From: Naegleria gruberi
Taxonomy: Eukaryota
Reading direction: 5' to 3' (one strand)
Assembly (NCBI GenBank): GCA_000004985.1
Contig: GG738851.1
Length of the DNA stretch: 64,000 nt
Position numbers and translations under genes: made by a program. This document shows, piece by piece, positions 23,996-48,413 of this stretch. Below the pieces are notes generated by a model, which ran no database searches, was not told the DNA's origin, and worked only from the letters and a program-made list of their open reading frames with translations. Each line of letters starts with the position of its first letter. The first letter of the stretch is position 1.

Positions 23996-25495
23996 ATGCA
24001 ATTTCATAAAAATCTTGCCCGTACATTGATTTCAGCCACTGCCAAGAAGGCAGCAACAACATCGGCACGTAGAGGAGGTGTTTCAATGATGGTGGCTTCT
24101 GGTACTATTAATTCATCTTCATGTAATAAGAAGGTTAATTTTGGATCGACTTTGGTGCATCAATCGGGTGTTGTTACTTCATCAATTAAAAATTATCATA
24201 CCACAAATTCTAACAAGAAGGTTGTTCCTTTCTTGTTGGCAGATATTGGTGAAGGTATTACAAAGGTTGAAGTTGTTAAATGGTTTATTAAAGAAGGAGA
24301 CCACATTGAACAATTCCAAAATGTTGCTGAAGTGATGAGCGACAAGGCAAATGTTGAAATTAGTAGTCGTTTTGATGGTATTGTTAAGAAGTTGTGTTAC
24401 AAGGTTGGTGACATTGCCAATGTTGGTGCTCCATTGATTGAAATTGAAGTTGCTGATTCTACTGCCTCTCCAACAGCTAGTACTCCATCATCAACAAGCA
24501 CAACAGAAACTAAAACAACAACAACAACTTCTTCATCTACTAGTTGTTCTTCATCAGATCTTGCTGAAGCATCATTCGGAAAGACTTTAACAACACCAGC
24601 TGTGAGAAGAATTGCTCGTGAAAATAATATTGATTTAACAAAGGTACAAGCTACTGGAAGAAATGGTAGAGTTTTGAAGGAAGATGTCTTGTCTTATTTG
24701 GAAAATCCAACTAAACATACTGAAAAACAATCGGAAAAGGTTGCTGCTGTTCCAGAACAAACTACTACTGCAGCTCCATCTACACCAGTTGTTGGTGATC
24801 GTAGAGAACCTGTCAGAGGACTTATGCGTACCATGATTAAGACTATGAATGCTGCTACTAAAGTTCCACACTTTGGATACAAGGATGAAGTTTATGTAGA
24901 TAATTTGATGACTCTTAGAAATCATTTGAAGAAGACAGCCGAAAGACAAGGTGTCAAATTGAGCTATATGCCATTTATTATTAAGGCTGTTTCTTTAGCT
25001 CTCAAGGAATATCCAGTTTTGAACTCTTCTCTCTCTGAAGACGAAAGTGAAATTATTTACAAGGGTGAACATAATATTGGTGTTGCTATGGATACACCAA
25101 ATGGTTTGTTGGTTCCAAACATCAAGTCTGTCCAAAATAAGTCTATACTCGAGATTGCTGCTGAATTGAATCGTCTTCAAGAATTGGGCAAGCAAGGAAA
25201 GCTTGGTTCTAATGATTTGAGAGGTGGTACTTTCACATTGTCAAACATTGGTACTATTGGTGGTACTTATGCTGATCCAATTCTTTCAATTCCTGAAGTT
25301 TGCATTGGTGCTATTGGTATGATTAAGAAGACTGCCACTTTTGATTCACACAATAATGTTGTTCCAAAACACATTATGTACATGAGTTGGGCTGCTGATC
25401 ACCGTGTTGTTGATGGTGCTACCATGGCCAGATTCTCTAACGTGTGGAAGGAATATTTGGAAAATCCAGACAATTTCATTGTTGCCCTTAAATAA
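23996..25495 (+). CDS. DBT: lipoamide acyltransferase (E2) of the mitochondrial branched-chain 2-oxoacid dehydrogenase complex
   Basis: Lipoyl domain ('VMSDKANVEISSRFDGIV'), peripheral subunit-binding domain ('PAVRRIARENNIDL'), and catalytic domain with 'DHRVVDGA'. Confidence 0.85.
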   Translation: MQFHKNLARTLISATAKKAATTSARRGGVSMMVASGTINSSSCNKKVNFGSTLVHQSGVVTSSIKNYHTTNSNKKVVPFLLADIGEGITKVEVVKWFIKEGDHIEQFQNVAEVMSDKANVEISSRFDGIVKKLCYKVGDIANVGAPLIEIEVADSTASPTASTPSSTSTTETKTTTTTSSSTSCSSSDLAEASFGKTLTTPAVRRIARENNIDLTKVQATGRNGRVLKEDVLSYLENPTKHTEKQSEKVAAVPEQTTTAAPSTPVVGDRREPVRGLMRTMIKTMNAATKVPHFGYKDEVYVDNLMTLRNHLKKTAERQGVKLSYMPFIIKAVSLALKEYPVLNSSLSEDESEIIYKGEHNIGVAMDTPNGLLVPNIKSVQNKSILEIAAELNRLQELGKQGKLGSNDLRGGTFTLSNIGTIGGTYADPILSIPEVCIGAIGMIKKTATFDSHNNVVPKHIMYMSWAADHRVVDGATMARFSNVWKEYLENPDNFIVALK

Positions 25496-30508: not shown

Positions 30509-30976
30509 TTAGATTCCGCATTCCTTTTCAAATTCCTTAACATCAAACTTGGTCTTGGTAGAAGCATACTTGATAGCCTTTTCAACTTGTTGGGAATTTT
30601 TGAGCTTTCCCTTGGCAATATAGGTTGCAACGGTCTTTCTATTGGCACTAGTTTCTGGCAAGGTGGATTGAATTAGCTTGACCAATAATGGACCACATTG
30701 ATAGTTGAATTGTGGTGATGTGATTTCCAATGGAATTTGTACTTCATTGACAAGTGTGATGAATTTAGCAGAAAGACTCTTGCTCTTGGTTAAATTGAGA
30801 ATATCCTTCTTGGTCAAGCCTACGATGGCCATTACTTTTTCTTGGTCCATTTTGATCAAATTGAAATTTTTAGTTGGTTGTTTTTTTTGTTGAATATTAT
30901 TTGATGAATAAATAACATGGTCTTTTTGATGACCAAACTTGGATTTTGTTCCAGTTTCCATTTCAATACAGTGCAC
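30509..30976 (-). CDS. small hypothetical protein (155 aa)
   Basis: ORF with ATG. Lys-rich. Weak resemblance to a YqeY/GatB-C-terminal-like helical domain is not convincing. Confidence 0.4.
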   Translation of the reverse strand: MHCIEMETGTKSKFGHQKDHVIYSSNNIQQKKQPTKNFNLIKMDQEKVMAIVGLTKKDILNLTKSKSLSAKFITLVNEVQIPLEITSPQFNYQCGPLLVKLIQSTLPETSANRKTVATYIAKGKLKNSQQVEKAIKYASTKTKFDVKEFEKECGI

Positions 30977-31212: not shown

Positions 31213-34200
31213 TTATTCCTCCTTTAATAAAAATTTTCCAAGCAACGCATGAAGTTTTTGAGCTGCTCTTGCCTTTTCTTCCTTTGAGGAGAATAAATCA
31301 TCCAAATTCCTTGTTGAAATAAGAGTTTCCAATGTGGTCAAATGCTCTGTAAAGGTAAGATTATGATCTGAAACAAATCTTACTTGCTTCTTCTTTTCCA
31401 TTCTTTCACTTGTTGGTTCAATTGGTTGATGAGGTCTAATGGGGCTCTTCTTTAGTATTGGCGTAATGGCTACATTATTCATATTTGGGGAGCTATGTTT
31501 TTGTGCACTGGTTTGAGTTATCTGAGTTTCATCATCTTCTATACTGGTTTTTTCTGGTGTTGACTCTCCCACTGATGTTAATTGGACATCAGGTTTTTCA
31601 ATCTTGACCTGATTTTCAGGAGCTGTAAAAGTTATAGAGCACGACGAGGATGAATTGGATTGTTTTGGGGTACATCCAGATTCCAACTTGCTGAATAAAT
31701 CTTCTACAGATGAACTATTTTCCTTCTCTTCCTCTTTCATTATTGGAGATAATTCCAAAGCTCTATTAAAATCAGGAGTGATAAGGTTAATCACTCTTTC
31801 ACCATTCTCTTTTTTAGGAGTAATTGGAATATCTTTGATATCTATCATGGAACTGTCATTCAGCAGGTTATTTGGTGCAAGATTATTATTAACGACAACT
31901 GGAGCAGAAACAATATCGCTAATATTAAGCAAATTATTTACAGTTTCCTTCTTGACCTTTACCTCAACCTCTTCATCACTATCATCAATGGATAGAAGTG
32001 ATGATGACAAGAGACTAGGATTCATTTCTGGAACTACAAGTCTTGTTTCCTTTCTTTCACGCATCTTTTCCTTCTGTGATTTAGTCAACTTTAGTTTCTT
32101 CTTATTAGATTCTGTCCTTTCTTCTACTTCTTCCTTAAGGGCAATTTGTTCTTCTTCTTGTTTTACCTCTTCAGCCCTCTTTCTCTTATTGTCCTTATTT
32201 TCTGTCGTGGCTACAATGGTTGGTGCTTGCATTGCAGGTTTTGGTAAATCTGATTCTTCGAAAGGAAAGTTTGGTAAGTCAGCTTTAGAAATCTCTCCCT
32301 TCTGAAGTAAATTGGAGAAAGCTTGTTTCAAGCTTGGAGAGTAATTGAGAGAGGTCTTCGACTGTGAAAAGTATGAAATCCAGAATTGGGTGGTGATACG
32401 TTTCACTTTAGAATTTCTCTTAGAGTCCAATCCAATCACCAATACTTTCTCCATTTGATTTAACATGTTTTGATCAAAAACTACACCATCCTGGAGACAC
32501 CACTTACTAACTTGATTGAAAACACCTTCCCAAATATTTTCGCAAAGAGTGGCAAATTGTAACATCTCCTCTGTTGAATAGACAACACTTTGATTTTTCC
32601 TTGATAGGAATGACCCTTGAAGCTCAAATAAAGTAGTAAAGTCCTTATCAAAGAGAATCTCTTCGGCATATTCTTGAGCAAATTGAATTGCATGTTGTGC
32701 ACTTCTGGAGAGAGTTAAAATGTTCTTCAGTTCAGACATTAGTTGAGTTATTAAATCAAAGAACGGATCAGAAAGCTTTGAAAATTGTCTTCTATAATCA
32801 AATATCATCCAAACAAAGGTTTTGAGAAGTAATTGAAGATTGTGTATGGTAGATTTTCCTGATGGTATAGAAAGTATAGAAACCTTGAACCTCTGGGATT
32901 CATGACAAACAGTGCAAAGTAATGAAAGTATTTTGGTACCAAATAGAATCCAACTTCTCATTAGCACATATGACGTTGATGTTATACCGTTGATATCCTC
33001 TTTTTCAATCTCACTTAATATACAAAGATATTGACAGTTCAATTTCTCCAATAAATCTTCTGATATTTTTTGTAAATGGTGGTGAGAAAGGTTATTCTTC
33101 AAATGTTTGCTAATATAATGGAAAGGTGGCATGTTGGTATTGGATGTTACATTTCCAAACAATACAAGCATTTCTTTAAGAATATGAAGTATCTCACTGT
33201 CATTCGAAAGTATTGTGTTGATTACTTTCTGGTGAGCTTCTATACTAAACTCAGGTTTGATATCATCCGACATAATATTTCCATTAAGGGTAAGCTTGCA
33301 TCCAAAAAGATCAAAAGGATAAAATATCAGCTTCTCCAGTAATGGTAAAAATTCTGGAGTAAGTACCTTGCTGGTAAGCCCTGAATCCGTCTGTTTTTGA
33401 TTTTCTGGGTTTTGCTTACAAAGATAGGCTTTAAGCTCTTGAGCTTGCTTCTTTCTCTTTTGTAGAGTTTCTGTTGATGTATTCGGAAGATTAGCATCAC
33501 CAGTTTTGCTAATCATCAAAGAAAAGCATGTATCCACAGCTCTAATTTCATCCCTTATAGAGCTACAATATTTTTTCCATAAAATCATTTGACACTCTAA
33601 TAATTTAGTTAATCCTATTGTATCTGAGGAAATAGTTTTAGATACAACACATACTTCTTGATGTGTTGTTATTAAATCCTCCAGTAAAACAATCATCAAA
33701 TGAACCTTTCAAAAATATAACAAAAAATACTAAAGTTACTCACAATTGAATCGTTATACAGATTTGGAATAGTCAGTAAATCAACCAATACTCTATTACA
33801 TAACATTGTAACACTATTATTAATCATTTCACAAATCTTATCTCCATATTGTTTTGTTGGTGAATTATTGAAAGCCGAGAATGCAAGTCTATAGAGGCAG
33901 TAAATTAGAGCAAAGAAAGGAGATTTTTTCAGTTCAGGTGGCTTCAGTGAATCCTTGATACCACTTGTTATTGCCTTCACATCAATGAAAACCTTGATTG
34001 AATTGCATGTACCAGAAATTAGAAGATTGACTGGGAAGCATTCAACAAAGCTTTTGATAAATGCAGAAGACATTTCTTGAATCCATTCTTCCAACATTGG
34101 AGATGAATCCGAGGTAGAATAGTGTAAAACGTTTTCCACACAAAATGTTAAAAGACCTGTAATAAGTTGCACCAAAAGGGATGAATATTTTTCTGCATCA

Positions 34201-36108
34201 CTTTCTTTCATATCTCGTGGGACATTCCTTAAATATGAAACAATAACCTGACAAAGGGATCTAAAATAGAAATTGAGAGTTTTGCTAAAACGTTTAGAGT
34301 TTTCTATGGTTTGATCCGTTGTATCTACATTAAAACTCTGCACTAACCCAGCCACTAATTTGTAGAAAAAGGTATTGAAAAATACTTTGATATTACTAGC
34401 AAAAAATTCCAATCTTTGAAGGGCATCACTTGCTTTAGTATTTGGCTGGCAAATGAATAGGCCATCTTGCTTCAAACAACTCGCAGAAAATAGATAAGCA
34501 AAGTCCTTGCGAACAAGGAATGAAATGTCATTAACAAATGTAGAACCAGTTAAGAAATGTCTGTAAACCACATCCTCATCTAGATCGTCTTGTGAAAGTG
34601 CCTCGACCCTCTTTTTTCTAGCTTTGAAATTGTCTCGTTGGTCATTATATAACCATTGTCCCAAAAAGAGAACGAGCTGTTCTTGTAAAGCATAGTCTGC
34701 TGTTTCCTTGCTAGCTACAGCAGTAAATAGAGGTTTCAATAAATGTTCAAAGAATAAAGAAATTTCCTTATCTGCCTCAGGCAATAAATGAAGAATTATC
34801 TTTTGATAGCATATTTCTCTTAATTTTCTATCTGAAGGATTCGAATAGCCTTGAGCTGCTGTTTTTAGTGGTGCCAGTAAAGGCTTTAGCAATAATGCAA
34901 GCCTTCCTTTAGCATGTATTTTGCTATGTGAGCTCATTAACTGTATGAGCATGGTCCAACTATACTCGATACACTCACATACAAGCATATTATTTACAAT
35001 TTCCATAGTTTTAGAGGATTGGGAAGAACTTGCTTGAGAATCCTCAGATCTTAGTGCTAACTTAGGTTTGATAATTTCATTAAGGTTTGAAAGTACATTT
35101 TCTTTTGAAATATTTTTCTGTAAAAAGTAAAGAATATATCCCCAGGCTTTGAATCCTATAATTTGTTGTCTATTTGTTATTTCAGGCAGAATCTGGTTCC
35201 AATTCAACGTAGCTCCATTATTATTTGTGATGGCCTTTAGCTGTATTTGAGTAGTTTCATAGACTGGAACAGTTAGATTTTGTTTAAGCATTTTTTGATA
35301 ATCCTCAATTGAAGCTAATAAACTTTTAGATATTTCCGCTAAATCTCTTTCTGATATTTTGAATTTAGTATTATTACTGAAAGGTAGCATGTTTTTAAAG
35401 ACAGTTAACTCTGTAATCCTCTCAGCTGCTACACAAACACTACAAAAATGAGATAAAACGATAGATATCTTACTTACGTTTTGTGAGGTGACACAAGACA
35501 TTCGATTACATCAACAAACCATATCGATACAAATTTTGCTGAAATCTCTTGCAATTGATTCAAAAGTACTAACAGAGTATTCAAAGCTTCTGCAGTTGTG
35601 ATGTAATTTTGGTATGGATTCTTTATACCAACATGAATTGAGTTGAAAATATCATTTGAATGAGGCTCAATCACATTATATCCAACTTGTGACGAGAATC
35701 TCTGAACACCCAAACACCACACTGCTAGTGACAAGGACTTTTTCGATAAATTTGTTTGTTTTACCACAATTCTGAAAAATCTTTCTACATGAACCGAGGA
35801 GTACTGTTTAGAAATGGTTTCGTGATGAGCCAAAAATCCGTAGCAAGTAAATACTGTTGGGTTACTATCATGATAAATTAGTATACATCATACAATTAAA
35901 TCAAAACATACGTTTCTCCAACTTCAATTTCACTCTCCAGAATGTCTAAAAACCTATCCAAATTATCCGAAACAAATTGAAGTATTATTTTCGAATTCTT
36001 CTTCAATAGAGTTAATAATTCTTGAAATAAATCTGCATTTTCTCCTGAACGATTCTCCAAGTTGGTGAGCAACTCTTGAATAATTTGTTTTTCCGATTTT
36101 GTTGCCAT
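31213..36108 (-). CDS. RIF1: RIF1-like protein (HEAT/ARM-repeat N-terminal region, C-terminal SILK- and RVxF-type PP1-docking motifs), 4 exons, ~1590 aa
   Basis: join(31213..33705,33744..35439,35478..35864,35912..36108), complement. Introns are 47, 38 and 38 nt with GTATGT/GTAAGT/GTGAGT donors and ATAG/TGTAG/GAAAG acceptors. All keep phase. C-terminus 'PILKKSPIRP...KKKQVRFVSDHN' aligns with metazoan RIF1 'SILK...KVRRVSFADP'. Confidence 0.65.
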
Positions 36109-36970
36109 TGGATTTAGTTATTGTGTACACAATAGTGATGATGATAATATGATCACAATGGTAAAAATAAAGCCTTCGGCAAATGATCTTGCTATGGTTG
36201 CCTATCGTTAATATTAAAGGCTTTAACGTTAATTTTTTTAAATTTGTTTGGAATGGCGCCAAACTATTCATTTTCTAATGTTTTGTGGAAAAATCCACAT
36301 TGACCAACATTAAAGAGAAAACATGTTGGTTTTCACTTCAAATATTTGCTGATGAACACATCCTATTTGTTGCATTACATCAAGAAGTAATTTCCTTTGA
36401 ATTAAGAATGAAATAATATTTGCAATTTTTTAAAAAATGTTTTCCAAGAGATTCTGTTCTGGACTTGTTAAGAGCAATTTGTTCACTTCATCGGTGAAGA
36501 GAGGAGGTGCCGTGATGCAAAAATCACAATTTTCATCAGCTATGATTTCTATGAGTGCTACTAATAGGTATGTTTTGGAGTTATTTGTACGGAGGATATC
36601 AATGTGTGGTGGATTAATTATGTGTAGTATTTTGAATTTGGAATCCAATGTTACATCACTTACAAGTGTAAGAAAGGCTTCATCTTCATCATCATCTTCT
36701 CTTCGTGTTATTAGAATTGGTACTAGCGGAGTGACCACATCTATTTCTTGCCTTCTCAACTCGGATGATGATGGTGTATAATGAAACGCAATATATTCAA
36801 TTCAATAATAATTAATAGATTCAATGAATCACTAGTTTTCTTCCGATTTTTATTTCCCATCTCCTTTATTTCCTTCTTTTTCATCATTAATAAAACTATT
36901 TGGTTATCAATTAATTTAATAAGGATTTTAGAATGATGATAATATATAATTTAAATAATAGTTTTATGAT

Positions 36971-39900
36971 TTATTCAACAAGCTTTCTTAAATTAATTAT
37001 TTGCATTCCGATACCCACAACAATAATTCTGTAAAAGTTCTCTTCTTCCACTACGTGCATATTGGAAATATCACAAACCTCACTCATGCAACTGGCAACA
37101 ATCTCAAAAGCATCTTCTGTTGAGGAAATTTTGTACATATTCAATCTTTGATCGATACTAATGGAAATGATTGAATTCTTTCCATTCGTATAGATACCAC
37201 TCACAGCAGAGCTGTGTACTGATTCAATATGCATGTTTCTAAGAATTTCTAAAGAATCATTTTCATATTTCAATACTGCCAAATTGACCGATTGGTCGTC
37301 TCCTCCTGTGGCAATATGAATGGTGTTTGGATTTTCACTTAATGCAATGCTTATGCAATTTACACCAGATTGGTGAACTTCACATTCAAAGAATGGTTGA
37401 ATGACAGTCAAATCGCTGCTGGAAAATTCTGGAATTCTAAAGCAGTAAATCTTTCCATTTGTTGATCCAGAAAATAATAATCTAGTATTGCCGATGACAA
37501 TAGAAGACAATGACATGACTGGACCAGTGTGAGGTGAGCTACATCCAAGAGGTTTGAGTTGAGTCAATTGATTTTCTGTTTTGAAAATCTTAATTAAGCC
37601 ATCACTACTTCCTGTGAAAATTATCAATTCCTTATCGTCTGTAGAAAATGTTTCCAAAGCTAAAATTCTAAAGTTAATAACATCCATTCTAGTCTTATTC
37701 TTTACCAAGTAGCTTTTCGAAGTGTCAATTTCTGTAGTTTCCTTTCTGAGAATGTGATCATTATAAATTTGAGGATGGAAGAGTGGGAGATATTGCTTTG
37801 TCAGTCCAATATTTAATAGCGTACCAGAAGTTATTGTAGAGTACCCTTCACTATCGACGTGTTCTTCAAGTCTCCAAATAATTAATTGTTCCTTTCCACC
37901 ACCTGAAATAAGAATATTGGAATTGTCTTTTGATAAAAGTTAGCCAAATAATCTTAATATTTTACAACTTACTATTTCCAGAAATATTGGCCAAAACAAG
38001 TTCCTTGACACTACTTTCGTGACCATTAAGAATGGACATGGTATTCAAAGACAATGAAAGTGATTCATCTTCTTTAGGATAGGAAAGTAATCTAATTTTT
38101 GTATCTTCGCTGGAAGTGAGTATTCTGAGACTTCCATCATTCGATTTCCAATGAATAGCATTCAAAACTTCTCTACCATGGAATTGAGTGAATGGAGTTT
38201 GATTCTTGAAGAGTGTGAGGGAAGATTCTTGCTTTTCTCTGAAATGCTGAATTTGAGAGTCTCTGAAGAATGAAGCAGAAAAACATAATTGATTAGTTCC
38301 ATAAATATCTGAATAATCCAAGTTGTAAATTCCCCTGGAGGCTCCACATTGGCAAGAAGCAACTCTAAACCTCTTGGAGTAGTTATATACAATAAAGTGG
38401 GCTCCATAGAAACCTAGTAAAATAATTTCTGTTTCCTTCTTGTTGAATGATGAGGCTGGAATAGTATCAACAAAATCAGCACATCCAACAAGTAATTTGT
38501 AATCTCCTGTTGTTTCAACCTTCTCGATCACGTACACTTTATCCATTATTGGTATGATACTCTTCATCTTTTCTTGACCGTGCTTTACAAGTGAAAGCAA
38601 GCCATTTTCATCCTCAACCATATCATAAAAGCAAATAGTTCCGTCCCTTCCAACAGAGTAAATATTATTCCTATTAATAAACTTAATGTCACAAACTTGG
38701 TCTGTGTGTGATTTTACCAAAAATTCAGGGGAATATTCTTGGATAGTATCATTCACTCTCAAAATGTGAACAAATCCATTATCATCTCCTGTTAAGATAA
38801 TTTTCTCATCTCTTACAGCACACATTGTTTGGACTTTACCTTTCATAGTATATTGTGCACCTTCCTCGATTGTAAGAATATGTTCAATTGGTACCATTCT
38901 CATACACTTTACAATACCCATAGGTGACGTAAAATAGAGACTGAATGTAGAGTCTAAGTTGGTTACCCAAAAGATGGAGAGAATTCTTGTACCGAAAGGA
39001 GAAAACTTGACCCTTAATTCATTAGTCTTTAAATCAATAATCAAGCAATTACCATCAGAGCTACCTATTGCCAAAAAATTTCCACATGGAGAACATTTGA
39101 TTACTGTAAGCAATGTGTTTTGACTCAGGGTTGAGCTAATATTGAAAACTTCTCTATGTTGTCCTAATAACATATTAATCTCAAAAACTATACCTCGTTT
39201 TGTTCCTACATAAACAAGGTGATTATTTGCATGCATACAACGAACCATATCGGCTTGCTTTTTCAAAACTGCTGTATTCATGTTTGGTAAAGTGAGAGTT
39301 TCATGAACAACAGCAAAGTCCTTAATACGTTTGAGAGACCATAATTTTACAGAGCTGTCTCCTCCACCACTGGCTATTATTTGCTCATCTCTATCGACAT
39401 CAACTCTCCAGACATTTCTTCCAATGTGGCCTTGTAGTGTACTGACACAATTTCCTTCATAATCCCAAATTCTAATTGTGGCATCTTCACTTGCAGAGAC
39501 AATAAAATTTTGAGTGAATTTACAATGCCAAACTCTTGCTGTATGCCCAAAAAATGTTATACTCTTGTAGGAGAATTTTTCTCCAACTTGGCCTGTATTA
39601 CTGAATGGTTTTTCATCAAATTTCCACAGTATCAGAGTTCTATCATCCGATGTTGAGCATAACATTTTGCCATCTTTAGCCCATTCAACATGGAACAAAA
39701 CACCATCGTGACCTTTAAGAGTAATTACTGTATCCTTTGTGTTAAATTTGGCATTCCAAACAATTACTTGATTGAAAACGGTACCAGAAGCAACGTCAAC
39801 TCTATCAATAATATCATTTACAGTTGAAATTGGATTTTCAGATTGTGACATGAATAATGACATGGAGTAGAGCAAACAATTAGGGTAAGATCTGAAAGAT

Positions 39901-40505
39901 GTTAAAATTGTTAATGAAAAATTCTCTTCAATAGTTGTCAAATGTTTCATTTCTCCAAAAGGGTTGAGATTTTTCAAATCAAATGATATAACTTCTACAA
40001 AATTGTGGGCATAACCGAGTGCCAAACATCTAGAAGAATTATCCAGTGATAGAGTAGTATCAATCACGTCCAAAATCCAATCACACATTTCACCATAATT
40101 TGCTACATAGCAAGACACCTCTTCTTTACCATTATTTTCTTCAATTTTCAATTGAACTATTTTCAATCGTTTTTGTCCAAACACAATCAAATTTTCACAC
40201 AAATTATTTCCACTTGTCTCTTGTTGTTCAATTTCCAAAAATTTAATTCCCTTTATACTTCCTCCCTTTTCAAAAAGTTTTACTCTATACAATTCCCTTC
40301 CCGAATATGCGTTGAAAATATGAAGATTAGGTCCTATTCCTGCATATAAAATTGAACTATTCGAACGAGAAAAACAAATACAATGTATTGGACCCATATA
40401 AATTTTCTTATCAAAAATTGACACCTCCGAACGAAGACTATACTCCTTGTACTGGTTATTTTCATCTGAATTGTGCAATAAATTGCCTGATGATGATTGC
40501 GTCAT
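36971..40505 (-). CDS. WDR6-like WD40-repeat protein (tRNA 2'-O-methyltransferase partner), 2 exons, ~1155 aa
   Basis: join(36971..37902,37973..40505), complement. 70-nt intron (37903..37972, GTAAGT..TTTCAG). Multiple WD40 units ('..GHDGVLFHVEW..', '..SASEDATIRIWD..', '..GGGDSSVKLWS..'). Confidence 0.7.
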
Positions 40506-40739
40506 TTTTTCAATTTCTTCTTCAAATTACTGAATGCACTTTTCATCATGAATACGTTCATTAAAAATTCAATGAAAATATTATCATCGGAAACATTAAG
40601 AAATAATCATCTGATGGTTTAATAATGGTCAATCCTAATTGATTGTTTGATCCAGAGTCTCCTCTATTAATTAATATCTGAATTTCACTCTCTTCTCTGC
40701 CATAATGATTGAAACTCTGCTTTTAATTTGAATAAAAAA

Positions 40740-43379
40740 ATGTTGAATTTATTCAAGAAGAAGATTACCTATCATGCCACATCTGGTTTGGTTGCATCTT
40801 CTTCATCGCCGACGAGTGCCCTATTGTTTGGCAGTGGTGCTAATACAACAGTAACGAATAATATTCTTCTGCCATCAATAGTCAACAATAACAACAGTGG
40901 GACAACAAGAGGCTTTAAACAAAAGTTTGGTAGAGTTTCATCATCCAACAATACGGAAGATAAACAACAACAACATTCATCTCAACATGGATTTTCTACT
41001 AATAGTGGTGAAACAAGACAACCAACATCTAAAAAACCATTCAAGTCTAATTTCCAACAAAATTCCAACAATCATCACAACAAACCACACCACCAGAAAT
41101 CACAACAAAATTATAAGGAAAAACATTCAAACAATACCACTTCTACCACATCTTTCCTAAAAGACCATCACGAAGAACCATCAAGAAACTTTAAATTCAA
41201 TAATAACCAACAACATTTTGATAAGAGTCAAAGAAAAGGAGGATTTAATAAGAGAGATGATAAAGCTCAATTTCAACATCACAAAAAGCATAATATGGAA
41301 AGGAAACCAAAGAAACAACAGTCAGAAACTCCTTTACCCGATGTTGTTTCTAATGTTGAAGAGCCTATCAAAGAGGAAAAGAAAAGTTTTGTTGCTCTCA
41401 ATTATGACGATATTGATATGAACCTTAAAGGTGAAGATGAAACACACCAAACATCTGCAAGTGATGTCTCTCCTTTCTATGAAGGGAATGAACATTCATC
41501 TGAATTCACACCTTTCACAAAAGAATTGGAAATTAATGTAGACATTTTATTGAAACGAGTTTTAGAAAAGGTCAAAACACAAAATGCTGTAGAAATTGAT
41601 AAGGAGAAAGATGGTCTTTCTTCACTTCTCAGAGCTACTGATTCTGCAATCAAGGAAGAGGATGACGATATTTTCCAACCACGTGATTTTAGTCTTATCG
41701 AGGAAACTGATGAAGCAGAAGAAGAACAAGATTTTGTTGGAAAGAAATATGATACACTTCATAAGAAACCACTAGAATTGAAGAAGAAAGCCTCTCGTGA
41801 AAAGGAAGAATTCAGTGAAAAACAAAGTGCTGAAGTACTGACAAATGCCAAATACATTCCATCTGTGGGTATAAAATATAGAAGTAAGAATAATGATGAA
41901 TCACTTCCAGCTCTTCACAAATACCTAGTTGATTTTGGAGATTCAGAATACTTGCAATTGGCTGAAACTCATCCATCTGAAAAGATGTATGTCGGAGATT
42001 CAGATATTAATCAAGTACCAACTTTGAAAAATGGGCTCAATAGAGTTTTAACTTCACCTGGTGTACACAGAATGTATGATGGTAAAACTAAAACTCATTT
42101 CTTCCATCCATACATGAGACAACTCCACAAACCAGAAGAAATCAACTTTAATAATTTGACACCTTTCATTCCACCATCCCAAGATACTACCCTCCACAAA
42201 TTAATGGATCAAAATCCTTGCAGATATCAATCATCAACAAGTTCCATAACCTCACCTCTGGTTTCCCTCTATCTTGCACTCTCTAACTACAAACCAACAA
42301 GAGCAAGAAATTTGGAAAATTTCAAATATCTTACAAGCTCATTCACTCCTGCTGTTCGTAAGCCAGTCGTTTTTATTCTTCGTCCAAAGCTTTCCAAACT
42401 CGGACATACTTTCTACTCAATAGATTCATACAAATTCCTTTTTGAGCCTCGATCAAATCAAATTTTGATGGACCTTGGTAAAGTAATGGAAAAGCTTTTT
42501 GTTATGGAACCAGAAGATTTTGAAAAGAGATTTGTTAAACAATATTGTGGAGAAGAACAAACAGTAGAAGATGAAGAAGTATACAGATACCTTCGCCACG
42601 GAAGTTTCCTTTTGAGATCACAGTTGGATTGTTACCATCCTCAATATGGTGTTTTTGATATTAAGACAAGAGCAACAAATCCAATCAGAATCAACATGGA
42701 AAAATATCAAAAATTCACAAACATCAAACTGAAGATGATTAAGGGTAACTATAACTCATACGAAAGAGAATTTTATGATATGGTTAGGTCTGTATTCATA
42801 AAGTATAGTATGCAGGGTAGAATTGGTGGCATGGACGGCATGTTCTTGGCCTATCACAATACTGTCGAACTTTTTGGTTTTGAATACATCAAGTTGGGCG
42901 AAATTGACAAACATGTATTCGGTAGTCCACATATGGCAGAAAGATTCTTCAGTCTTTTACTCGATTTATTAGGTGAAGTTTTGGATAGAATTACTGAAAA
43001 ATTTGCTGGTCAAGCTCTCAAAGTAACTTTCCGTCCAGTTAAAGTAGAACCATACTTTATTGACATTTTTGTTGAACCAGTACATGGTGATTTAGGATGG
43101 AATGAAAGAAAGCCAACAGAAGAAGAAAAGATGAAATGGGAGTCTGATCGATTCAATGCTAATCCATTCGCTGACATGATAGAAGATACTGTTTATTGTT
43201 ATCGTTTATCATGCCAACCAATGGTAAATGGAGCTGTTTGCAGAAACTATGTCGAATTCAAGGAAGAAGACAAGGTTGACATTTTGTACTGTTTGGAAGA
43301 AATGGGTGATACCACAACTGACAAATTCTTATTGAATGAGTACATTCTCACTTTAAAGAAGGCCTTCTTTGTTGAATAA
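40740..43379 (+). CDS. Pet127-like protein (mitochondrial RNA 5'-end processing, PD-(D/E)XK-like core) with long N/Q/H-rich N-terminus
   Basis: C-terminal ~450 aa contain the conserved block '...CYHPQYGVFDIKTRATNPIRINMEKY...GMDGMFLAYHN...'. The N-terminal 400 aa are low-complexity. Confidence 0.55.
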   Translation: MLNLFKKKITYHATSGLVASSSSPTSALLFGSGANTTVTNNILLPSIVNNNNSGTTRGFKQKFGRVSSSNNTEDKQQQHSSQHGFSTNSGETRQPTSKKPFKSNFQQNSNNHHNKPHHQKSQQNYKEKHSNNTTSTTSFLKDHHEEPSRNFKFNNNQQHFDKSQRKGGFNKRDDKAQFQHHKKHNMERKPKKQQSETPLPDVVSNVEEPIKEEKKSFVALNYDDIDMNLKGEDETHQTSASDVSPFYEGNEHSSEFTPFTKELEINVDILLKRVLEKVKTQNAVEIDKEKDGLSSLLRATDSAIKEEDDDIFQPRDFSLIEETDEAEEEQDFVGKKYDTLHKKPLELKKKASREKEEFSEKQSAEVLTNAKYIPSVGIKYRSKNNDESLPALHKYLVDFGDSEYLQLAETHPSEKMYVGDSDINQVPTLKNGLNRVLTSPGVHRMYDGKTKTHFFHPYMRQLHKPEEINFNNLTPFIPPSQDTTLHKLMDQNPCRYQSSTSSITSPLVSLYLALSNYKPTRARNLENFKYLTSSFTPAVRKPVVFILRPKLSKLGHTFYSIDSYKFLFEPRSNQILMDLGKVMEKLFVMEPEDFEKRFVKQYCGEEQTVEDEEVYRYLRHGSFLLRSQLDCYHPQYGVFDIKTRATNPIRINMEKYQKFTNIKLKMIKGNYNSYEREFYDMVRSVFIKYSMQGRIGGMDGMFLAYHNTVELFGFEYIKLGEIDKHVFGSPHMAERFFSLLLDLLGEVLDRITEKFAGQALKVTFRPVKVEPYFIDIFVEPVHGDLGWNERKPTEEEKMKWESDRFNANPFADMIEDTVYCYRLSCQPMVNGAVCRNYVEFKEEDKVDILYCLEEMGDTTTDKFLLNEYILTLKKAFFVE

Positions 43380-46757: not shown

Positions 46758-48413
46758 CTAGTCAGAAAATGTGAATAGTGTTTCAAATAATTCTTGGAGA
46801 TTTCGTTGAATGGAATGAAGAGCATCTCTTGATATGATTGGTTCCATGCAAGAAAGAGAAATAATGAGCTTGGCAGAGTGTTTCTCATTAGGAGGGAGTG
46901 TGAGAGCGCCACATGCTAAGCATCCAGCCAATGCTGATGTGTTTGCAATTGTGTACATGGAGTGAATAGTCAATGGGGTAGAAGAAAGTTGATAACTTCT
47001 TTTCACAGAATCAAGTTGACCATTATTCGTCACTATAAAGTTAACAGGTAGTCCAGCAAGGAAAACATCATTATTTTCTAATGTTTTGGCCATGGCTGTT
47101 TCTCTAGTGAGAGGAGATTGAAGAACATTTGTCAAAATAAATTGGTTTTCAAAATTGGCTGCGTGATTAGAGAGAATTTGTTTTGCATGACTGACGATGG
47201 TTTTCTTCACATCATAACAGGAATCGAATTTTAAATCCTCAATGAAAACACCCACATGTAAGGAAAGAGTGTTTCCATCCAGAACTTGAGAAAGGTGAGG
47301 AATTTTGCTTAATCCAGTTGGATAACCCACTCTAACACAACTATTTGGATGCAATGGATTTTTGTCATGCTCTCTAGCAGCTTTCAAATAGGCGAGTGAA
47401 AGTAATGGAATAAGGCATGAATTAATTGAGACGCCATGTTGTTTGGTAAAATTTCTAAAGTGCTTTAGAGTGTCCCCTTCAAATTCTAACTTCACCATGC
47501 TAACTGTCTTGTGCTCGTGTCTCCTATCGAATTGGATTAAATATTGGTTAGGTTTGTTGAATATCATCTCCTTGATAAATGGAAAGGCATATTTCAAAGA
47601 TTTCCACTTGGCTGAGAATGAGTTTAATCTTGAATCCATTATTATTTCATCAGTAGATGCAAGTAGTTTCTTAATTTCCACTTGTTCTGTTTCTCTTTCC
47701 ATACTCACATTTTCACATTCTCTCAATACTTGTCCTATAAAATTGGAAATTGAAATTCCGTCTCCTATACTATGATTATATCTCACAATCAAATACAAAT
47801 CATTTCCATTCATATAATAATACAATTCCAATTGAAAATCCTTCTCCAAATCGTAACTCTTTTGTGTGAGTACCTGTTCAATATATTCCTGCATTGGATT
47901 TTCATTCTTCTCAAACTCTTTCATTTCTCCCTCTAAATTAACAATTGGAATGAGAGGAAGATATTGATCATCCATCAATTCAAAAGAAAAAGCCAGTTTT
48001 GAACCCTTTGGATTTCTAATAATTCTACTTCTCAATAGAGGCTGTCCCTTTTGAACTCTATCAACAGCCCTTCTCAATACTCCATCAAAATTAAAAGCCT
48101 TTTCAATTTTAATATGCGCAACTCTAAACACCAAACCATTGCCATACTTTTTCAGAGAGGGAGTCAACATGATTTGTTCATTCGGAGACAAATTTCTTCT
48201 ATCCAGAATATGTCGTTCCTTATCACAATTATTGGTTTTGTAGACATGTGAATTTAAAAGTTGATTGGATTGTGTTGAATAGTTGTAATATGATGATCCT
48301 ATTGTTCTAGAAGTAATTTGGACACTGTTCTTCAGGGATGTTGCAAGCAACAAGGAAGATTTGTGTTGCACTTCTTTAATGGAGCGAACGGAATGCTTTG
48401 CCAATTTAAACAT
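46758..48413 (-). CDS. HxxxD-motif acyltransferase (condensation/CAT-like superfamily), probable mitochondrial presequence
   Basis: 551-aa ORF. 'YNHSIGDGISISNF' (HxxxDG catalytic motif). Basic, hydroxylated N-terminus. Confidence 0.55.
   Translation of the reverse strand: MFKLAKHSVRSIKEVQHKSSLLLATSLKNSVQITSRTIGSSYYNYSTQSNQLLNSHVYKTNNCDKERHILDRRNLSPNEQIMLTPSLKKYGNGLVFRVAHIKIEKAFNFDGVLRRAVDRVQKGQPLLRSRIIRNPKGSKLAFSFELMDDQYLPLIPIVNLEGEMKEFEKNENPMQEYIEQVLTQKSYDLEKDFQLELYYYMNGNDLYLIVRYNHSIGDGISISNFIGQVLRECENVSMERETEQVEIKKLLASTDEIIMDSRLNSFSAKWKSLKYAFPFIKEMIFNKPNQYLIQFDRRHEHKTVSMVKLEFEGDTLKHFRNFTKQHGVSINSCLIPLLSLAYLKAAREHDKNPLHPNSCVRVGYPTGLSKIPHLSQVLDGNTLSLHVGVFIEDLKFDSCYDVKKTIVSHAKQILSNHAANFENQFILTNVLQSPLTRETAMAKTLENNDVFLAGLPVNFIVTNNGQLDSVKRSYQLSSTPLTIHSMYTIANTSALAGCLACGALTLPPNEKHSAKLIISLSCMEPIISRDALHSIQRNLQELFETLFTFSD

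Follow-up and report, generated by a model that had tools for sequence, protein, structure and literature searches.

The RIF1 orthologue of Naegleria gruberi and its putative C-terminal PP1-docking motifs

RIF1 (Rap1-interacting factor 1) is a conserved protein of chromosome maintenance, with roles in replication timing, at telomeres, and in double-strand break repair. In yeasts and metazoans, the substrates of RIF1 acting with protein phosphatase 1 (PP1) include DDK-phosphorylated MCM, whose dephosphorylation restrains origin firing (PMC3937515, PMC3989773, PMC4811881). The PP1-docking motifs of mouse Rif1 lie in the C-terminal region CRI, with SILK at residues 2128-2131 and RVSF at residues 2150-2153. 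This module binds PP1 with nanomolar affinity; changing RVSF to RVSA nearly abolishes binding, changing SILK to SAAA lowers the affinity about 20-fold, and the KIAF motif of mammalian RIF1 does not bind PP1 (PMC5437018). Here we describe a gene in a 64,000-nucleotide stretch of Naegleria gruberi DNA (contig GG738851.1 of assembly GCA_000004985.1), which is referred to below as the window. The gene lies on the minus strand at 31213-36108 and has four exons and a predicted product of 1590 amino acids (aa), and it is almost certainly the N. gruberi RIF1 orthologue. It is an unlabelled but otherwise ordinary member of a family that was already known.

For the comparison with animals we used a published alignment of the metazoan module, because a profile search with an alignment of eight Rif1_N sequences returned only the window's own exon-3 open reading frame (ORF) and gave no named metazoan or protist RIF1. 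The published alignment (Additional file 6, PMC3410773) contains human SPLASPSTSILKRGLKRSQEDEISSPVNKVRRVSF, Drosophila SPSASPSVSILKRKLRCESLDDVTLDSPALKRKRVSF, and Trichoplax SPKTSPTGILKRW…GKARRVTF, with distances from the isoleucine of the SILK motif to the valine of the RVxF motif of 23, 25, and 19 residues, respectively; the distance in mouse is 22 (PMC5437018). The corresponding values are 25 in N. gruberi, 27 in N. lovaniensis, and 30 in N. fowleri. As in metazoan RIF1, a predicted helical solenoid of about 1000-1200 aa makes up the body of the Naegleria protein and gives way to a long, probably disordered region, and there is a putative PP1 module near the C terminus in the order SILK type and then RVxF (spacing of 19-25 in metazoans and 25 in N. 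gruberi), with SP/TP sites on either side of ILK. However, Naegleria has Pro before ILK where animals have Ser or Gly, and its KQVRF contains no phosphorylatable Ser, whereas animals have RRVSF or KRVSF. At 1590 aa, the Naegleria protein is also shorter than mouse RIF1, in which the PP1 motifs lie beyond residue 2100, and, by eye, its module is followed by neither a CRII-like segment nor CRIII, with 53 residues left after the RVxF motif.

Fungal Rif1 proteins (Saccharomyces cerevisiae, Schizosaccharomyces pombe, and Mucoromycota) likewise have a pair of PP1-docking motifs, but the pair is found in an N-terminal extension and in the order RVxF and then SILK. In S. cerevisiae, the motifs are KSVAF at 114-118 and SILR at 146-149 (PMC6035837). 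Among the Mucoromycota, Calcarisporiella has KSVVF at 21 and GILK at 46, and Jimgerdemannia has KNVVF at 95 and SILK at 123. In Naegleria, the Rif1_N domain starts at about residue 25 with no N-terminal extension before it, which excludes the fungal arrangement, and the Rap1-binding module of fungal Rif1 is also missing.

A malawimonad, Gefionella okellyi, has a RIF1 protein (EukProt EP00698_P024419, P0016) that resembles the Naegleria one in its Rif1_N domain (139 bits), in a tail block, 'LT..Q[KR]E', that is treated below, and near the C terminus, where 'RPILKSP…(14 aa)…SVRF' repeats the Pro-ILK variant and V-R-F of Naegleria. Its module is 'RPILKSPTTASPAKRRSGGSVRF', with an I-to-V distance of 18. 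Unlike Naegleria, Gefionella keeps, by eye, a CRII-like segment after the module and has no basic residue directly before the RVxF motif (GSVRF), and the N-terminal domains of the Gefionella and N. gruberi proteins are only about 19% identical. RIF1 of the haptophyte Diacronema has a C-terminal RVxF motif (RKSVHF) and no SILK-like motif, and a CRII-like segment seems present by eye. The RIF1-like proteins of land plants (e.g., Impatiens XP_047309165.1) share Rif1_N, the solenoid, and the tail block, as 'LT.HQKEVRRAQ', with Naegleria but are without the SILK/RVxF pair, both in our own scan and in the published survey (PMC3410773).

Family identity

When scanned alone, residues 1-440 matched the Pfam family Rif1_N (PF12231) with an E value of 5.1e-10 and a score of 39.3 bits, compared with a gathering cutoff of 23 bits. 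The match pairs protein residues 25-204 (35412..36036, minus strand, across introns 1 and 2) with profile positions 10-197, and this Rif1_N core contains the signature motifs CYGFLAHHE, LAVWCLGVQRF, and NPYQNYITTAEAL. By eye, CYGFLAHHE, LAVWCLGVQRF, and NPYQ..TTAEAL are common to the heterolobosean and the other Rif1_N proteins. The Willaertia orthologue matched Rif1_N at 57.5 bits. When the N terminus encoded in the window was compared as a single sequence, by hhalign, with a profile of 11 nonheterolobosean Rif1_N proteins (from plants, fungi, a haptophyte, and a malawimonad), the two aligned over 326 columns with Prob 99.2 and an E value of 6.3e-20, and the match extended to residue 439 (nucleotide 34707).

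Additionally, we built a heterolobosean profile from residues 1-1195 of the N. gruberi protein and of two orthologues. An exhaustive search with it through 1.84 billion representative sequences at an E value of ≤1e-3 retrieved 27 proteins. The close matches were ORF-style fragments of Naegleria genes, among them the exons of the window's gene as present on a metagenome contig, while 15 of the 17 distant matches that were scanned had Rif1_N above the cutoff. The two exceptions were a fragment (P0009) and the Acrasis kona protein (P0010), which by eye has the same conserved N-terminal and tail motifs despite having no Rif1_N above the cutoff. Two matches had informative names, an Impatiens 'telomere-associated protein RIF1-like' and a Jimgerdemannia 'Rap1-interacting factor 1 N terminal-domain-containing protein', and others came from Calcarisporiella, the malawimonad Gefionella okellyi, and the haptophyte Diacronema lutheri. 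No importin- or CAND1-type protein was among the matches of this search.

A scan of the full-length 1590-aa protein with hmmscan against Pfam gave a different result, with no Rif1_N match even at an E value of ≤10. The initial annotation, which had proposed RIF1, named the lack of a Rif1_N match, together with chance occurrence of the motif strings in a different family, as what would overturn the proposal, and the full-length scan alone would have counted as such a lack. The rescan of the N terminus by itself, a comparison of the kind that the annotation had called for, shows that the full-length miss is a false negative. In the N. lovaniensis orthologue, Rif1_N was likewise missed in the full-length scan and found with the N terminus alone; long low-complexity proteins can escape full-length domain scans.

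Two further results count against the assignment. First, phmmer and profile searches of PDB sequences returned either nothing or only generic HEAT proteins (CAND1 and importin-beta), yeast Rif1 being too divergent to be reached by a PDB sequence-profile search. Second, fold searches did not single out the Rif1 N-terminal domain from other HEAT/ARM proteins: with the model of residues 1-440 (predicted local distance difference test [pLDDT] score of 81.3), Foldseek against PDB gave generic solenoids only, with E values of at least 2.7e-3 and TM scores of 0.3-0.4. The larger AlphaFold 2 model of residues 1-1195, built with three sequences, was left out of the fold search because its pLDDT of 55 was too poor for a judgement of whether it has the 'shepherd's crook' shape of the Rif1 N-terminal domain, a long and irregular HEAT/ARM solenoid of about 1000 aa. 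Its secondary structure is entirely helical, in agreement with the N-terminal helical region described in the initial annotation, and residues 1 to about 1230 (32296..36108, minus strand) are predicted to form a HEAT/ARM-like alpha-helical solenoid.

The full-length scan and the failure to find Rif1 in the PDB sequence searches would both suit an unrelated HEAT/ARM-repeat protein that carries SILK-like and RVxF-like strings by chance. This explanation is already contradicted by the Rif1_N match above the gathering threshold, by the hhalign result, and by an exhaustive profile search that retrieved essentially only Rif1_N proteins and none of the importin or CAND1 type, and the signatures LAVWCLGVQRF and NPYQ..TT.EAL, common to both sides, also speak against it. 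We give it almost no credence. The identity first proposed for the gene is thus upheld by the Rif1_N match, the hhalign alignment, and the profile search together.

PP1-docking motifs in the C-terminal tail

Composition and a five-way alignment indicate that residues 1231-1590 (31216..32295, minus strand) form a low-complexity, probably disordered tail with conserved islands. The aligned sequences were those of N. gruberi, N. lovaniensis, N. fowleri (P0004, equated with this species via its cluster mate XP_044560365.1), an uncultured Naegleria-like species, and Willaertia. Hydrophobic residues make up 26% of the tail versus 40% of the body, and the tail is without Trp or Tyr, so that its aromatic residues are Phe only. 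The tail had been described at first as Ser rich, which the counts do not bear out (10.6% Ser in the tail versus 9.6% in the body); it is rather rich in Glu, Lys, Ser, and Pro. After residue 1240, 67 of 350 positions are invariant in the five-way alignment, and they are clustered as islands.

The sequence TPILKKSP at residues 1508-1515 (31441..31464, minus strand) is a putative variant of the SILK-type PP1 motif with flanking TP and SP sites, in which PILK occupies residues 1509-1512 (nucleotides 31450-31461), and KQVRF at residues 1533-1537 (31375..31389, minus strand) is a putative RVxF-type docking motif. I1510 and V1535 are 25 residues apart. The whole segment, SSPNMNNVAITPILKKSPIRPHQPIEPTSERMEKKKQVRF, is laid out as the metazoan module is, with SP/TP, ILK[KR], a Pro/acidic linker, a basic run, and V-x-F. 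A position of SILK N-terminal of RVxF is the rule among PP1 regulators with a combined module. PILK (1509) upstream of KQVRF (1533), in a tail of low hydrophobicity, follows the order of the combined SILK and RVxF regulators of the Inhibitor-2 type. The spacing of about 25 aa and the order given in the initial annotation were therefore accurate, and the C-terminal alignment that it suggested shows a pair that is conserved in heteroloboseans (ILKK in four of five) and that matches the metazoan module in order and spacing.

K1533, V1535, R1536, and F1537 are invariant in all five heteroloboseans (35-49% identity) inside a poorly conserved tail, and KQVRF is the one site in the protein that fits two stricter forms of the RVxF consensus drawn up for this analysis. 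T1508-P1509-I1510 is also invariant in the five sequences and is followed by L-K-K in the four Naegleria-type ones. When the 361-aa tail was shuffled, an xIL[KR] motif with an RVxF motif 10-40 aa further on appeared in 0.56% of cases, and the combined pattern occurs once, at this site, in the 20,603 residues of stop-free stretches on both strands of the whole window. In N. gruberi, S1514-P-I-R constitutes a full CDK consensus. Another candidate RVxF motif, KVFF (546-549), was rejected because of its position within the helical domain, which is also where the nonbinding KIAF of mouse Rif1 is found.

Several observations weigh against a PP1-docking pair in this tail. A strict [GS]IL[KR] motif is found nowhere in the 1590-aa protein, and PILK does not fit the consensus [GS]IL[RK] that has been published for SILK (PMC6035837). 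Of the SILK and RVxF motifs reported in the initial annotation, KQVRF holds up as a conserved match to the strict consensus, while the 'SILK' is a noncanonical Pro variant. Willaertia has IRPN in place of ILKK, and Acrasis kona has TPIKK and is without RVxF; these sequences suggest that the PP1 module is dispensable or replaceable within the same class. The land-plant proteins are also without the pair. Finally, no CRII-like segment ('IKTIGDLS.LT..EIKTLP') was found by eye in the N. gruberi tail. The C-terminal RIF1 domain CTD-II, which serves in DNA binding and oligomerization, is only 'partially conserved' (PMC6035837), and its absence therefore does not exclude membership in the RIF1 family.

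The violation of [GS]IL[RK] by PILK would be explained if RIF1 docked PP1 by KQVRF alone and TPILKKSP were kept as a proline-directed kinase site or as a motif for another partner. Consistent with this, Willaertia retains KKVRF but has ITPIRPN, T-P is the invariant part of the TPILKKSP island, and Diacronema RIF1 has RKSVHF with no SILK-like motif. However, in four Naegleria-type species and in Gefionella, ILK[KR] stands upstream of RVxF, with the order and the distance known from metazoans, and the Ile, Leu, and Lys residues that were mutated in the roughly 20-fold weaker mouse SAAA variant are all present (PMC5437018), so that we consider docking by KQVRF alone unlikely.

The absence of RVxF and SILK from Acrasis kona and from the land-plant RIF1-like proteins (for plants, see also PMC3410773) raises a more sweeping alternative, namely, that neither tail motif binds PP1. 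The islands would then serve nuclear import, other partners, or oligomerization, and heterolobosean RIF1 would act without PP1, as plant RIF1 may. RVxF-like strings are frequent, a loose RVxF being present in about 24% of the tail shuffles, and the KIAF motif of mammalian RIF1 is an example of one that does not bind PP1 (PMC5437018). This alternative has to contend with the invariance of K, V, R, and F in five of five sequences across about 35-49% identity in a disordered region, with the fit of KQVRF to the strict consensus and its uniqueness in the protein, with the rarity by chance of ILK[KR] at the right distance, and with the match of the module to the experimentally verified one of mouse (PMC5437018). 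We judge it to be quite improbable, more so than docking by KQVRF alone.

The best explanation of these data is probably that the gene encodes a RIF1 orthologue working, like the RIF1 of yeast, fly, and mammals, as a PP1-targeting subunit, which docks via KQVRF and PILK, and from the sequence comparisons we lean toward both tail motifs docking PP1. According to this model, the solenoid body would position RIF1 on chromatin or DNA, and the tail would recruit the PP1 catalytic subunit, with KQVRF (1533-1537) in the RVxF groove and PILK (1509-1512), 25 residues upstream of the KQVRF valine, in the SILK pocket. The recruited PP1 would dephosphorylate local substrates, for example DDK-phosphorylated MCM, and origin firing would be restrained; the protein may also have a part in the other genome-maintenance roles of RIF1. 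Switching of PP1 docking by kinases has been reported for RIF1 of other organisms. By analogy, we speculate that proline-directed kinases acting at the TP before and the SP after ILK might switch docking off in Naegleria.

Gene structure, other tail features, and neighboring genes

The gene is complete at 31213..36108, judging by the gene model and by colinearity with full-length orthologues, and the coordinates, exon number, and length in the initial annotation proved exact. The coding sequence of 4773 nucleotides (nt) is free of internal stops, and the stop codon is counted in 31213-36108. It is made up of ORFs of 70, 119, 601, and 828 aa joined across three short predicted introns, all of which are of the GT..AG type; the very short introns and the GC content of about 33% are in keeping with N. 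gruberi as the source. On the minus strand, exon 1 (35912..36108; residues 1 to 66, phase 2) is followed by intron 1 (35865..35911; 47 nt, GTATGT…TACTAAT…AG), whose junction ET|NPTVF is colinear in the orthologues. Next come exon 2 (35478..35864), intron 2 (35440..35477; 38 nt, GTAAGT…AG), exon 3 (33744..35439), intron 3 (33706..33743; 38 nt, GTGAGT…AG), and exon 4 (31213..33705), which encodes residues 761-1590 and the stop. The exon-1 ORF, read through into intron 1, is identical to the protein sequence P0011.

Both ends of the protein (MATKSEKQIIQELL… at the start and …LLGKFLLKEE* at the finish) and each of its three exon junctions line up with the N. lovaniensis and Willaertia magna orthologues. 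The former (P0001, C9374_002524; 1748 aa) is 43% identical to the query in a full-length alignment, and the latter (P0002, ABK040_007708; 1436 aa) is 35% identical over the full length, with an E value of 2e-232. Both are labelled 'hypothetical' in the databases, as is N. fowleri XP_044560365.1 (P0150), and the Acrasis kona relative KAL0477358.1 (P0010) carries the name 'nagB', which is a mislabel. No protein of N. gruberi was among the results of the homology search with the RIF1 query, and the exact 1590-aa sequence had no match in a collection of 15 billion proteins. Judging from this absence of matches, the locus appears to be without a public N. gruberi protein model in the collections searched, and the public gene set of N. 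gruberi may not include it. The neighboring gene for an E2 transacylase is annotated. A public metagenome contig of 3019 bp (ENA ERZ929261, run ERR1078381, PRJEB11402) is 99.57% identical to window positions 33368-36386, and a very close relative of N. gruberi was therefore present in that sample.

Other conserved elements were found in the tail, all on the minus strand. A basic cluster, KRKR, at residues 1267-1270 (32176..32187) is invariant in five of five orthologues and is a candidate nuclear localization signal. The block KKLKLTKSQKEKMRERKETRLVVPEMNPSLLSSSLLS at residues 1296-1332 (31990..32100) is strongly conserved in the five-way alignment, where it reads KLTKSQKEKMRERKETRLVVPEMNPSLLSSS. 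A related pattern, '[LM]T..Q[KR]E' with 'Y[TS].[LV]D.SQ' about 20 aa later, occurs in Acrasis, in Gefionella, in a protist protein from a transcriptome shotgun assembly, and in land-plant RIF1-like proteins, including one from a fern. Among the RIF1 proteins compared, the 'LT..Q[KR]E' block was absent from two Mucoromycota proteins and from Diacronema. We know of no description of this block or of any function assigned to it.

S-I-T-F at residues 1450-1453 (31627..31638) is invariant as S-I-[ST]-F in the five heteroloboseans, where it comes after a conserved 'SVEDLF.KLESGCTP' island. It is RVxF-like with no basic residue, and MAFFT placed the Gefionella SVRF opposite this site, which may be an additional docking site in degenerate form or something different. 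Residues 1545-1590 (31216..31353) form a C-terminal amphipathic segment that is conserved among heteroloboseans, possibly an amphipathic helix acting as an oligomerization element. When the last 70 aa of six heteroloboseans were compared by hhalign with five other RIF1 C termini, no similarity was detected (Prob 0.1).

Directly downstream of RIF1, the ORF at 30509-30976 encodes the N-terminal RNA-binding domain of glutaminyl-tRNA synthetase, and the other neighbors, at 37962-40505 and 40728-43379, encode a WD40 protein and a Pet127 mitochondrial protein, respectively. There is no apparent functional link between RIF1 and any of these genes. Further away, the single-exon ORF at 23996-25492 is 100% identical over its full length to the NCBI entry 'dihydrolipoamide branched chain transacylase E2 [Naegleria gruberi]' and 74% identical to N. 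fowleri and N. lovaniensis proteins, which marks the window as N. gruberi DNA. A minus-strand ORF of 551 aa at 46758-48413 contains a Pfam Condensation domain (the C domain of nonribosomal peptide synthetases; E value of 3.8e-8, 32.9 bits, cutoff of 30.6); such a domain is uncommon in amoebae and may have come from bacteria.

Evolution of the module and significance

Sreesankar et al. (2012) traced RIF1 to fungi and animals alone, apart from divergent proteins of plants that lacked the motifs, and in their proposal the module changed places, from the N to the C terminus, from placozoans onward (PMC3410773). The main text of that paper gives the C-terminal module of multicellular organisms as 'RVxF-SILK' and the N-terminal module of unicellular organisms as 'SILK-RVxF', and the opposite orders are found in its own Additional file 6, in the mouse data (PMC5437018), and in the yeast residue numbers (PMC6035837). 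No study of RIF1 in Naegleria or in another protist turned up in the literature that we searched.

Our comparison is based on a small taxon sample, with Amoebozoa, SAR (stramenopiles, alveolates, and Rhizaria), and algae outside it. Within this sample, a C-terminal SILK-type motif followed by RVxF is present in the discoban Naegleria, the malawimonad Gefionella, and Metazoa, RVxF alone is present in the haptophyte, and the N-terminal version is confined to fungi. Read most simply, this distribution points to an old C-terminal module that predates animals, with the N-terminal arrangement of fungi and the losses in plants and Acrasis as derived states. Whether a C-terminal [S/G/P]ILK-then-RVxF module was the state in the last eukaryotic common ancestor seems to us an even bet. 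The initial annotation took the C-terminal position for the ancestral non-yeast arrangement; its occurrence in Heterolobosea, a malawimonad, and Metazoa, against the N-terminal motifs of Mucoromycota, supports this, while the ancestry itself was assumed rather than proven.

If the C-terminal module is ancestral, the fungal reversed N-terminal arrangement would have arisen by motif loss and reinvention, the module would have been lost independently in land plants and Acrasis, and the 2012 proposal of an N-to-C move tied to multicellular animals would be reversed. The block 'LT..Q[KR]E…', which plants, malawimonads, and heteroloboseans have in common, would likewise be ancient, as the second such motif of the tail.

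The N. gruberi gene leaves existing knowledge of how RIF1 works unchanged. It would extend the RIF1-PP1 module to Discoba and bears on whether PP1 targeting is an ancestral core function of RIF1 and on how the RIF1 docking motifs have moved in evolution, with the PILK variant as a data point for the antiquity of the C-terminal module. For the organism, a large gene gains a name and a testable function, and the annotation applies to N. gruberi and, by homology, to N. fowleri and its relatives. Overall, the gene provides a candidate regulator of replication origin firing for a tractable free-living amoeba and, by homology, for the pathogen N. fowleri.

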